Source: Candidatus Heimdallarchaeota archaeon (GTDB lineage: Archaea; Asgardarchaeota; Heimdallarchaeia; Heimdallarchaeales; Heimdallarchaeaceae). Taken from it: 14,400 nucleotides of DNA. This document shows, piece by piece, positions 9,736-12,347 of this stretch. Both the position numbers and the translations under genes were made by a program. Position 1 is the first letter of the stretch; the number at the start of each line of letters is the position of its first letter. Under the pieces are notes generated by a model that saw nothing but the letters and a program-made list of their open reading frames with translations, did no database searches and was not told the DNA's origin. The DNA is taken from positions 1-14,400 of the forward strand of contig DAOVER010000065.1 in the NCBI GenBank assembly GCA_030668875.1, written 5' to 3'.

Positions 9736-10641
9736 ATGGCAGTAGAAACAACAGCGGTAATCCGCAATACTGAAGATAGTCTGGGGACTTATCTTAGTCC
9801 TCATGACCTATCTCAGATTTTAACTCCAGCTCTCCGAAAACAGAGTACGGTACGTTCGTATTTTGTTGATGCTGAAGAAGATCGCACTAATAGGATTATG
9901 GACTTTGTTACTAGTATATCTAACATTTTCTTTGAATACTATCCTAGCAAAATCATAACTGAAGTAGTTATTCAATTCCAAAGACTTCTTCCTGAATTTC
10001 TGGATGATTATGGAAATAATCGCTATTTTACAAAGAAACATGCAACCAATCATTATCTAGCTCTTCTAGATTATAGGTTGACTATGGTTGGTTCTAAACT
10101 CAGTCCCAAACATGTTGATCTTGTTAGGAGCTTACTTGGTATTAAAAAAAGCAAGATTCTTAGCTACTTTTCTGTTAAAAAAGTTCAAGATGATCTTCTA
10201 ACTTCAGGCTATTTACAGAGAAAGAAGAGAGAAGTATTTAGTCCTATGCTAAAGAATCGCGTTTCGCAAATAATTAATGAGTTCATATTAATTTATCCTA
10301 AATTAGAGGAAGATTTAGAGTCTTTACAAAAAATGGCTTATGAGTTGATTGATGAGAAACTGGTTCCTAAGATAAATGTTGAGGAAGCAGCATTAGTTAT
10401 CGTCTCTTCTCTATTACCTTTCTTTCTATCTGAACGAGGTTTGATGGGTTCTTTCTGGCTTATAATTAGAGATAAGTATCATATTGAGCTTGAGTATTTG
10501 AAGAGAAAAGTATATCGTTATCGTTCTCTACTTAAGAAAAATAATTTTAGTGAATTGGGTTTGGGTTTGGGTTTAAATAATTCTGTGGAAGAGAGAAGTG
10601 AAGAGTATGGTTATCCCGCTATGGTTAGAGAGTTTGTATGA
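9736..10641 (+). CDS. Hypothetical protein, probable divergent TFIIB/TFB-like tandem cyclin-fold protein lacking a zinc ribbon
   Basis: Two helical repeats align by eye to TFB core repeats: YPSKIITEVVIQFQRLL / YLALLDYRLTMVGSKLS / LGIKKSKIL, and LQKMAYELIDEKL / EEAALVIVSSLL / KYHIELEYLKRKVYRYRSLL. The protein contains no Cys. ORF confidence is high, fold confidence moderate. Confidence 0.55.
   Translation: MAVETTAVIRNTEDSLGTYLSPHDLSQILTPALRKQSTVRSYFVDAEEDRTNRIMDFVTSISNIFFEYYPSKIITEVVIQFQRLLPEFLDDYGNNRYFTKKHATNHYLALLDYRLTMVGSKLSPKHVDLVRSLLGIKKSKILSYFSVKKVQDDLLTSGYLQRKKREVFSPMLKNRVSQIINEFILIYPKLEEDLESLQKMAYELIDEKLVPKINVEEAALVIVSSLLPFFLSERGLMGSFWLIIRDKYHIELEYLKRKVYRYRSLLKKNNFSELGLGLGLNNSVEERSEEYGYPAMVREFV
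10555..10574 (+). repeat. (TTGGGT)3 in-frame microsatellite encoding LGLGLGL
   Basis: TTGGGT at 10555, 10561 and 10567, in the C-terminal tail of the TFB-like gene. Confidence 0.8.
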
Positions 10642-11347
10642 AACATTCATTGGTATATTCACAGGGACAGTGAGAATTACTTTCCTTGTCGTTCTTATTC
10701 TTTTTGTTACAAAATTTCTTTGGGACATTATTAGCGACTGGATTTTCAAGGACGTAAAAAAATATCTTAACTACCTTTTCTTTCCTGGTGCATTCTTTCA
10801 TCAACTTTGTCATTCTCTTGTGATCAAACTTTTTGGATACCAAGTCAAAGTTAATTTCCACATGAGTTATAGTTTAAGAGATTTCAGTTCTCAAAGTTTG
10901 TCTGGGGAGCTTAAAAATGTCTTCCATGCTTTTTTCATCGGTATTGCTCCCCTTTTCAATTTCATAATAGTTGTTCTATTAATTCAATTTCATCCCGAGT
11001 TTATTGATTTCTTCGAATATGCAAATTTCAGTATTGGAAACTGGTTTATTATCTACCTGATTATCTGCTTTGTTTACTTTGGTATGCCAGATTTCTCTGA
11101 TCTAATGTTATGTTTTACCACAGCTACAGCTAGACACGCTGAGATAATCTTCCTCTTAATGGTTGGTTTTTTCAGTTTCGTAATCTCAATTAGTTTGTGG
11201 GGTTGGTTCATTCCTCTGATCAATCTTATCATTTACGCTATAGTTCTGATCTACCTTGCAGAGAAAGAATTTTTTACAAAGCGGAAAACACCAATACAAG
11301 ATGGTTTTGAGCCTAAAGAAGATTCAATAGACACGAAACCCCAGTAA
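10607..11347 (+). CDS. M50/zincin-like polytopic membrane protein with a degenerate catalytic motif (HQLCH)
   Basis: FFPGAFFHQLCH corresponds to the PG..xHExxH motif, IGIAPL to the conserved AP motif and MPDFSDL to the distal P-x-x-x-D motif. There are about 6 hydrophobic segments. ATG 10607 is preferred over GTG 10598, and it overlaps the upstream gene by 35 nt. Confidence 0.7.
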   Translation: MVIPLWLESLYETFIGIFTGTVRITFLVVLILFVTKFLWDIISDWIFKDVKKYLNYLFFPGAFFHQLCHSLVIKLFGYQVKVNFHMSYSLRDFSSQSLSGELKNVFHAFFIGIAPLFNFIIVVLLIQFHPEFIDFFEYANFSIGNWFIIYLIICFVYFGMPDFSDLMLCFTTATARHAEIIFLLMVGFFSFVISISLWGWFIPLINLIIYAIVLIYLAEKEFFTKRKTPIQDGFEPKEDSIDTKPQ

Positions 11348-11426
11348 ATGCAAAAATATTTTAATCTCACGATTAACTTTACACTATAACCTCATAATAT
11401 CTAGGTGATTTACAATAAGACTACCA

Positions 11427-12347
11427 TTGAAATACGAAGCAACTGTAACTTCTTCTAGTCGGATAACAATTCCAAGATGGATTGTTTTTATTGAACCTGA
11501 AGACGTTATTGAAGGTTTTATCCAAGTTCCAAACGTTGACGCTTCATACCCCTTTGAGAAGAAAGTTTCTGCAACACGTCATATAACTATAGGTTTCATC
11601 AAAATTTTCCTTCCTGATAAAACAATTCCCAAAAGAGTGAACATAACAATCACTAAAGTGAATAAAATGGGTATTGATGATTTCTGTTTTAATCTTGTTA
11701 GTTACAAACAAGACGATACTAACTTTCTAATGAATTTCTCTTCAATCAAACCCAATACTATCATTCAATTCAAGTTAGATACTCTCGTAGAGGAATATGG
11801 AAACACTTATTTTGAAAGACAAGTAGCCGAAGGTAATTATTTTCTTGAACCTATTTTCGAGGAAAAGGATGGAAAATGGATTATTTCTGTCTACATTCCC
11901 GTTCAAGATGATATGGGAGGTATGTTTCCATTTATACTTTTCTTCATTCTTTCTCAGGAATGTTATCAGAAATATATTGTTTCTATGACAAAAATAAAGA
12001 AACTAATACAACGACTATCAAACTGGATATATAATCATGATGATTTAAACAAAGAAAATCTCTCAAAATTCTCTTCTCAATTGCGAGAGATTTTGGAAAA
12101 AGGAACAGGACCTAATTATCTGGAAATGAAAGAAATTTTGAAAATGCCCACACTAGAAAGAGAAATTATTTTAGTTGTTCTTAAGGAGCATAGAAATGGT
12201 GGAATAAGCCTAGAACATCTTGCAAAATACTTACATGAGTCTCAAAAGAATATTTCAGAGGTTATCTCAGAATTAGCCAATAAAGGATATATTAGACAAC
12301 TTAAGGAAAAAGAAGTAACAATCATAGACTCTTTATGGATCATCTAA
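11427..12347 (+). CDS. Putative transcriptional regulator: tandem AbrB-like N-terminus, longin/uDENN-like middle domain, C-terminal MarR-like winged helix
   Basis: YEATVTSSSRITIPRW and FEKKVSATRHITI are AbrB/swapped-hairpin-like repeats. EREIILVVLKEH..GISLEHLAKYLHESQKNISEVISELANKGYI is a wHTH. The middle region fits a beta-beta-alpha-beta-beta-beta-alpha-alpha order. The start is TTG, with an in-frame TGA at 11406-11408 upstream. Confidence 0.7.
   Translation: MKYEATVTSSSRITIPRWIVFIEPEDVIEGFIQVPNVDASYPFEKKVSATRHITIGFIKIFLPDKTIPKRVNITITKVNKMGIDDFCFNLVSYKQDDTNFLMNFSSIKPNTIIQFKLDTLVEEYGNTYFERQVAEGNYFLEPIFEEKDGKWIISVYIPVQDDMGGMFPFILFFILSQECYQKYIVSMTKIKKLIQRLSNWIYNHDDLNKENLSKFSSQLREILEKGTGPNYLEMKEILKMPTLEREIILVVLKEHRNGGISLEHLAKYLHESQKNISEVISELANKGYIRQLKEKEVTIIDSLWII

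Follow-up and report, generated by a model that had tools for sequence, protein, structure and literature searches.

Do three neighbouring genes of an Asgard archaeon form a single pathway leading from the membrane to transcription, or do they belong to separate units that lie side by side? This question is raised by positions 9736 to 12347 of a contig of Candidatus Heimdallarchaeota archaeon (GenBank assembly GCA_030668875.1, contig DAOVER010000065.1), the first 14,400 nucleotides (nt) of which were analysed and are designated hereafter as the window. The three co-oriented genes encode protein A, a soluble protein, protein B, a membrane protein, and protein C, which is predicted to combine a β-barrel, a longin fold and a winged helix. 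All three belong to orphan families, and A and C are found in a single genus of the Heimdallarchaeaceae. An initial annotation, made from the letters alone, had gathered the three genes, as a hypothesis, into one pathway, in which a protein A resembling the transcription factor TFB would be held at the membrane by a pseudo-protease B, in the manner of a sigma factor held by its anti-sigma factor, and protein C would integrate a signal from a small GTPase. The answer retained here, tentatively and at somewhat less than an even chance, is that the region consists of two units, a translationally coupled A-B operon and a gene C expressed on its own, rather than of one three-gene operon.

Gene organization and conservation of the block

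A word-indexed protein search yielded homologue clusters for all three proteins (35 for A, 20 for B and 23 for C), with identities down to ~40-50% and without internal stops, and A, B and C are therefore regarded as real conserved genes. The named homologues are attributed to Heimdallarchaeaceae, Heimdallarchaeota or Asgard group archaeon, with one match of C labelled Thorarchaeota. The sequencing runs with DNA of the locus come from marine sediment and, for a small share, from cold seep, and no RNA run occurs among those listed.

The coordinates agree with the layout initially described, namely three co-oriented genes with a 35-nt overlap between A and B, counted from the ATG of B at 10607 (an in-frame GTG at 10598 offers an alternative start), and a gap of 79 nt between the stop of B and the start of C. 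The latter figure holds for a TTG start of C at 11427 but falls to 67 nt for the ATA codon at 11415, which is favoured by the profile of the family. The absence of a terminator tract between the genes was also part of this description. Within a window of ~31-36% G+C, the longest T tract between the genes is indeed a T4 at 11359-11362, and tracts of T7 and T6 occur at 9578-9597, behind the zinc-ribbon gene located upstream of A; the B-C spacer, however, holds a conserved element resembling a TFB recognition element (BRE) followed by a TATA box. A scan for bacterial sigma-70 promoters and terminators was discarded, as it is not applicable to archaea and its yield did not exceed that of shuffled sequence.

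Profiles of A, B and C were used to search 30 related genomes at E<=1e-3. The matches of A are confined to the genus of the window (17/17) and so are those of C (16/17), and weaker relatives of B were found in three further genera of the order. The order A-B-C is a genus-level feature, since it occurs on one strand in 13/13 genus genomes holding all three genes, with an A/B overlap of ~29-35 nt, also checked by tblastn, and a B-C gap of ~60-90 nt. Four more genomes, in which the block is cut by contig ends, are consistent with this order, and one 88%-complete genome is devoid of A, B and C together. Because the neighbours preceding A vary from one species to another (zinc-ribbon membrane proteins in the window, tetratricopeptide repeat (TPR) proteins in locus L001, and in locus L004 a ParE toxin together with an S8 peptidase), the block appears to have been kept while its surroundings changed.

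A divergent lineage (locus L002, ~50% identity) displays another arrangement. There, A and B are adjacent, 76 nt apart and without overlap, and C is found elsewhere; its orthologue (P0078, 40% identity; L091:5001-7053 for the gene pair) lies tail-to-tail at 5 nt from the orthologue (60% identical) of the radical S-adenosylmethionine (SAM)/SPASM gene that also follows C, convergently, in the window. The stops of C and of the radical-SAM gene lie within ~15 nt of each other in 12/14 other genus genomes possessing both genes, and are separated by zero spacing here. As C has left A-B in the divergent lineage, yet stays next to the radical-SAM gene, the stable pairs would be A-B and C-radical SAM. 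The conservation of the neighbourhood was thus confirmed within the genus but fails for C in this lineage, and of the single three-gene module initially proposed, the A-B pair is robust, whereas C separates from it and possesses a promoter-like element of its own.

Probable start codon and promoter of gene C

The profile of the C family aligns from position 11415, where this genome and the relatives nearest to it have ATA, and other relatives ATG, TTG or ATT (B-C spacers L015, L017, L019, L022 and L023), and a Shine-Dalgarno-like element stands ahead of it. The true start of C is probably 11415, giving a protein of 310 amino acids (aa); with such an ATA start, the shorter entries of 229-280 aa found in this clade would result from truncation by gene callers. 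The BRE/TATA-like element of the B-C spacer occurs directly after the stop of B, ~55 nt ahead of the start of C, and is conserved across species. Its position suggests that C has its own promoter, and C is probably transcribed separately from A-B.

These observations also feed a different explanation, possible but on balance unlikely, according to which A-B and C are unrelated neighbours, C being a regulator or partner of the convergent radical SAM/SPASM gene and the A-B-C order an inherited synteny. The displacement of C in the divergent lineage, its close tail-to-tail association with the radical-SAM gene across the genus and the conserved promoter-like element between B and C all agree with it, but a shared transcript is impossible for convergent genes, and a regulator is more commonly divergent from its target. 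In addition, the radical-SAM family spans the whole order, where C was not detected; the promoter region of the radical-SAM gene showed neither the CTGCAA repeat found upstream of A (see below) nor any other shared motif; and the 88%-complete genome mentioned above lacks all of A, B and C.

Protein A

No match was found for A in Pfam (E<=1), in NCBIfam or, by sequence profile, in the PDB, where none of the five alignments used as queries returned anything meaningful. The best reading of A comes from its AlphaFold model, built with 26 orthologues (mean predicted local distance difference test score, pLDDT, 75; predicted template modelling score, pTM, 0.49), which consists of two sets of five helices and is best interpreted as a tandem cyclin-box fold. 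The repeats would cover residues ~46-163 and 164-279, and each half separately matches cyclin boxes, with Z scores of 8.4-9.6. With respect to the PDB, 47/50 of the best Foldseek matches of A are TFIIB or cyclins, the best one being TFIIB in human preinitiation complex structures (E 0.037, probability 0.99); the corresponding template modelling (TM) score reaches only ~0.28, the two halves being oriented differently relative to each other. Exhaustive alignment with VIA-align gave Z scores of 9.6-8.0 for BRF2, cyclins H/K/C/T/D, the RB pocket, TFIIB, Pyrococcus TFB and ORC6, although values of Z ~9 lie, according to the aligner's own warning, within the range that helical proteins reach through a common arrangement or by chance. 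The cyclin-box interpretation is favoured in spite of this reservation because the best 34 rows are all cyclin-box proteins and the two halves match independently: residues 54-163 superpose on Pyrococcus TFB (1ais_B) over 92 aa at 2.3 Å (Z 8.9), and residues 164-284 on ORC6 over 103 aa at 3.0 Å. A shape search of the ESM Atlas with the model of A returned only TM scores <0.4 to unrelated families.

Depending on the protein taken for comparison, the resemblance of A is thus qualified in different ways. The first repeat superposes on Pyrococcus TFB, but A differs from the TFB/TFIIB/BRF proteins in being restricted to one genus, with three paralogues per genome, and in lacking a zinc ribbon and a recognisable B-reader or linker. 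No Cys motif occurs in its first 45 residues and no conserved Cys in the 26 orthologues, whereas the three canonical TFBs of the genome possess invariant C19, C22, C38 and C41. PF00382 does not match A, and a scan of the genome with this family finds only the three canonical TFBs, with which A is paired by hhalign at 1% probability. Protein language model features place A near TFIIB-repeat clusters (0.85-0.88), which is taken as a lead only. Cyclins, which are similarly devoid of a zinc ribbon, the RB pocket and ORC6 share the fold at equal scores (Z 8-9.4), but A displays no sequence similarity to them, has no known partner of the cyclin-dependent kinase type, and is encoded by a gene coupled to that of a membrane protein. 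Scores being as good for cyclins, RB and ORC6 as for TFIIB, the fold points specifically neither to TFB nor to a role in transcription.

Residues 13-47 of A form a strongly conserved stretch of low model confidence, and the tail of the protein is disordered and conserved (LGLG...VEER...); one or the other could serve as an interaction element. The A family gives 1-4 matches in every genus genome searched, including two paralogues of 267 and 260 aa in the present genome (G000:C58:47262-47996, minus strand, and G000:C52:2322-2906, minus strand; loci L024 and L025). A pairing of these paralogues with B-like genes was ruled out, one of them lying between genes for an Mrp-type ATPase and a pyridoxal phosphate enzyme, and the other inside an oligopeptide ABC transporter operon, between the permease and ATPase genes.

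Protein B

Protein B shows no Pfam match and no PDZ or CBS domain. In addition to five clear transmembrane segments, it possesses a less hydrophobic helix with the motif HQLCH (residues 65-69, positions 10799-10813) and, further on, a PDFSD motif (11087-11101). In the 20 sequences compared, H65, H69 and D165 never vary and D162 hardly varies, and the PDFxDL motif stands at the end of a transmembrane segment; position 66, which is occupied by the catalytic Glu in the HExxH motif, carries Q, M, K, L or T, but never E, in 20/20 orthologues. In zincins, this Glu serves as general base, and activity is lost or strongly reduced when Gln takes its place. The HxxxH helix lies in a Lys/Arg-rich loop and the C-terminal tail is basic; from this distribution of charges, both are probably cytoplasmic.

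A HMMER search of 1.84 billion representatives identified only 25 proteins of the B family at E<=1e-3, of which five display a true HExxH motif and several others are devoid of both His. Three of the HExxH relatives match PF02163 below cut-off, with E values of 0.01-0.03, on the helix bearing the motif, and one of them also matches M50B. Using hhalign, residues 55-88 of B align with the HExxH helix of one set of M50/M50B-type open reading frames (ORFs) from Asgard archaea (87.9%, E 3.3e-6, 34 columns), and protein language model features also point to an M50-like protein, again as a lead only. Protein B may reasonably be placed, as a degenerate form, in a small family descended from M50-like membrane zincins. 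It is single-copy in the genome, which also possesses ordinary M50 peptidases. With the site-2 proteases, M50B and DUF3267-like proteins it shares the P-x3-H-x3-H-x3-A-x3-G-x2-V helix of the Asgard HExxH M50 proteins. The invariant Asp in a later transmembrane segment is a candidate equivalent of the LDG Asp of M50, the third metal ligand, and, as in the sigma/anti-sigma systems of regulated intramembrane proteolysis, the gene adjoins that of a putative transcription-related protein; B differs from the M50 proteins by the lack of the catalytic Glu in every orthologue and by the tiny size of its family.

In another genus of the order (g4), a 273-aa protein of the B family without the His pair is encoded behind a 240-aa protein with a weak MarR_2 winged helix, on the same strand and ~200 nt apart (L034:3447-5191, minus strand; L035:2264-4013, plus strand). 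A relationship between A and this MarR-like neighbour was looked for with hhalign and rejected. Prediction of an A+B complex with both alignments gave a score of 0.00 for a mark of 0.32, a result that weighs neither for nor against binding.

Protein C

The model of C (pLDDT 85) comprises three domains, whose residue numbers are counted here from the TTG at 11427. Residues 1-80 form a β-barrel, for which Foldseek retrieves 2glw (PhS018), an AbrB-like swapped-hairpin barrel, with a probability of 1.0 (TM score 0.66, 3.1 Å, 84 columns); the barrel contains two R-[IH]-T-I-[PG] motifs and has no match with the SpoVT-AbrB family of Pfam. Residues ~85-227 (11679-12107) adopt the longin topology β-β-α-β-β-β-α-α and resemble Lst4 (4zy8, Z 12.2, 130 aa, 3.2 Å), a Lokiarchaeal Roadblock-Longin protein (8yqg, Z 10.8), chain C of the C9orf72-SMCR8-WDR41 structure (7mge, 10.6) and chain H of the folliculin complex (6nzd, 10.4); in the ESM Atlas, the shape closest to theirs belongs to an Asgard cluster of Arf/Ras GTPase-longin fusions. 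Residues 233-306 (12123-12344) correspond to a MarR-like winged helix (fold Z 10-11.5, 1.1-3 Å over 62-72 residues), in which PF13463 (HTH_27) scores 22.5 bits for a cut-off of 22.2.

The longins that act as GTPase-activating proteins (GAPs) are defined by a GP motif before strand 2 and a catalytic Arg finger, features described for their Asgard look-alikes too (PMC12290439). In C, the loop preceding strand 2 reads DT, and GN in most relatives, but never GP, and the orthologue alignment reveals no invariant Arg, hence no Arg finger, within residues 85-200. NPRL2 and NPRL3 consist of a longin domain followed by winged helix-turn-helix (HTH) repeats (PMC3747258), and in Asgard genomes NPRL2-like longin domains occur fused to domains involved in signalling (bioRxiv 10.1101/2020.10.19.343400). 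As both the association of longin with winged HTH and the Asgard longin fusions are already described, C represents a new architecture within a known trend. It shares with NPRL2/NPRL3 (GATOR1), FLCN and SMCR8 a longin of the FLCN/Lst4/SMCR8 type, succeeded, as in NPRL2/3, by a winged HTH, but differs from them by the missing GP motif and Arg finger, by an extra N-terminal barrel of putative AbrB-like type and by a single, MarR-like winged HTH. With CodY and similar repressors, it has in common an N-terminal α/β sensor, a long linker helix and a C-terminal winged HTH; CodY is the top global Foldseek match of C (E 3e-4), at a low global TM score of 0.20, but its sensor is a GAF domain and that of C a longin fold. 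Judged from the model, such an architecture would fit a regulator that binds DNA better than one that acts on GTPases.

The single pathway initially proposed for the three proteins can be weighed at this point and is considered improbable. It has in its favour the cyclin-box tandem of A, with TFIIB and BRF2 among the top fold matches, the language-model lead to TFIIB-repeat clusters, the coupling of A and B by overlap, the shape of the C longin, nearest to the Asgard GTPase-longin fusions, and the g4 gene of the B family that follows a MarR-like winged-HTH gene. It is opposed by the lack in A of a zinc ribbon, of PF00382 and of similarity to TFBs, by the equal scores of cyclins, RB and ORC6, by the longin of C without GP motif and conserved Arg, by the promoter-like element of C and its position apart from A-B in one lineage, and by the absence of a GTPase gene from the window and from the flanks of the related loci, partners encoded elsewhere not having been sought. 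Among the individual assignments on which this pathway was built, the longin-containing character of C is supported at the level of the fold by the comparisons with Lst4 and the Lokiarchaeal protein and by the winged helix that follows. The pseudo-M50 character of B is supported at the level of the motif by the HxxxH helix, the replaced Glu and the invariant Asp, but similarity is limited to 34 columns and Pfam is silent; the TFB-like character of A is reduced to the tandem cyclin boxes of the model, the other hallmarks of TFB being absent. Still less credit, in fact very little, is given to an active intramembrane metalloprotease B relying on another residue or another mode of water activation, with A and its disordered tail as substrate or adaptor: the invariant His pair and distal Asp, the relatives with a full HExxH motif and the conserved disordered tail of A would suit it, but the Glu position is never acidic in the 20 orthologues and many members of the family also lack both His.

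Cis elements upstream of gene A

The region preceding A contains a series of conserved elements (Table 1). The distal TATA-like element has the cross-species form GTATATAA(A/G)C(C/T)CCAC, and the copy of GTATATAAGCTCCAC at 9614-9628 is the only exact one in the genome. The tandem direct repeat that follows looks like the operator of a small regulon. Exact CTGCAA-N5-CTGCAA occurs in 1-5 copies per related genome (five sites in G004) vs 0-1 for a reversed control pattern, and an exact copy stands upstream of A in 6/8 related genomes searched. In two genomes, a second copy (G001:C14:3379-3395 and G009:C91:13341-13357), again with a TATA-like box ~15 nt on, precedes genes that are orthologous to each other and whose product is a helical, TPR-like protein with a length of at least 446 aa. 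A search for such a regulon in the genome of the window was uninformative, its own copy being degenerate with two mismatches.

The element AGACATGG, located past the proximal TATA-like box, is a possible initiator or transcription start region, to judge from its spacing. The ATG contained in it opens a 19-codon out-of-frame upstream ORF (9714-9773). Because this ATG meets a stop after two codons in L001, the conservation of the element operates at the nucleotide level and is not coding.

Proposed mechanism

According to the two-unit reading favoured here, A would be a cytoplasmic protein made of two cyclin boxes and B a descendant, with ~6 transmembrane segments, of the HExxH (M50-like) intramembrane metalloproteases, in which the two His and the distal Asp persist on the side predicted to face the cytoplasm. 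As the catalytic Glu is lost, B would most likely be a non-proteolytic membrane anchor or receptor for A, possibly still able to bind metal, and the two proteins may associate with each other on the cytoplasmic side of the membrane. The presence of a conserved AAACTGCAA-type tandem operator just upstream of the TATA-like box suggests that A-B is placed under a specific DNA-binding regulator. Protein C, expressed from its own BRE/TATA-like promoter with a weak start codon, would be a DNA-binding regulator with an AbrB-like barrel and a MarR-like winged helix, its longin serving as a dimerisation device or as a partner-binding sensor for a protein or ligand input, and not as a GAP. In this respect, C would be an obvious candidate for the regulator of A-B, of the radical-SAM gene, or of both.

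Several points weigh against this reading. Nothing ties C to the CTGCAA repeats, and every step depends on prediction and synteny. The fold calls come from predicted models, with that of A at pLDDT 75 and pTM 0.49 and a Z of ~9 within reach of helical proteins in general. The link of B to M50 spans 34 columns surrounding a single motif, hhalign with another M50 set reached only 9.8%, and B itself has no Pfam match. Neither paralogue of A has a B-like neighbour, and the genes of the B family found in other families of the order are not accompanied by A. Finally, the synteny is drawn from one genus and one sister lineage and is inflated by shared ancestry.

Features and neighbouring genes

The coordinates of the genes and cis elements are assembled in Table 1. 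Of the genes near C, the radical SAM/SPASM gene listed there is the one that accompanies it most persistently. On either side, the block is bordered by the gene of a membrane protein with a C-terminal zinc ribbon and a Q/P/Y-rich linker (8982-9554, plus strand, and 13522-14319, minus strand), and zinc-ribbon genes of a similar kind border it in L001 and L002.

Table 1. Genes and candidate cis elements of the region (positions of the window)
Feature	Position	Strand	Description
Distal TATA-like element GTATATAAGCTCCAC	9614-9628	+	Conserved upstream of A orthologues of only ~58% protein identity
Conserved TGAC	9640-9643	+	In the upstream alignments of A, after the distal TATA-like element
Tandem direct repeat, candidate operator	9648-9664	+	aCGCAA-N5-CTGCAA here, CTGCAA-N5-CTGCAA in relatives; kept upstream of A in all loci compared
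Proximal TATA-like box	9681-9689	+	~17 nt after the repeat; position and type (TTAAAAGG / TTATAAG) conserved
Conserved AGACATGG	9710-9717	+	~26 nt past the proximal TATA-like box; core invariant in all upstream alignments
Gene A	9736-10641	+	301-aa soluble protein; conserved N-terminal stretch of low confidence, two predicted cyclin-box repeats, disordered tail
Gene B	10607 (ATG)-11347	+	246-aa membrane protein; 5 clear transmembrane segments plus HxxxH helix
BRE/TATA-like element, probable promoter of C	11350-11367	+	CAAAAA-n-TTTTTATCT-type motif in all B-C spacers compared
GGTGAT Shine-Dalgarno-like element	11404-11409	+	Ahead of the C start; kept in the closest relatives, partly in others
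Gene C	11415 (ATA, likelier) or 11427 (TTG)-12347	+	Predicted AbrB-like barrel, longin fold and MarR-like winged helix
Radical SAM/SPASM gene, TIGR04084 family (E 3e-114)	12348-13433	-	Convergent with C, zero spacing

Biological significance

In archaea, TFB is to our knowledge the one cyclin-fold protein family that is well known. Another family of tandem cyclin boxes, devoid of a zinc ribbon and with three paralogues per genome, would bear on the diversification of cyclin-like and TFIIB-like proteins, and would do so in the Asgard family closest to eukaryotes. The longin-winged-helix arrangement of C mirrors that of NPRL2/NPRL3 and offers a testable case for roles of longins before GTPase regulation. 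The A-B pair, one protein soluble and the other membrane-bound, both of small size, would provide a simple system for the study of pseudo-proteases as membrane receptors in archaea. A more ambitious picture, put forward as a speculation with little probability attached to it, is that a zinc-ribbon-less cyclin-box factor is tethered and released by a dead M50 descendant, with C setting the expression of the pair, which would amount to an archaeal analogue of the sigma/anti-sigma couple built from eukaryote-like parts. If true, this tether-and-release device would represent an undescribed relay from the membrane to gene expression in the closest relatives of eukaryotes.

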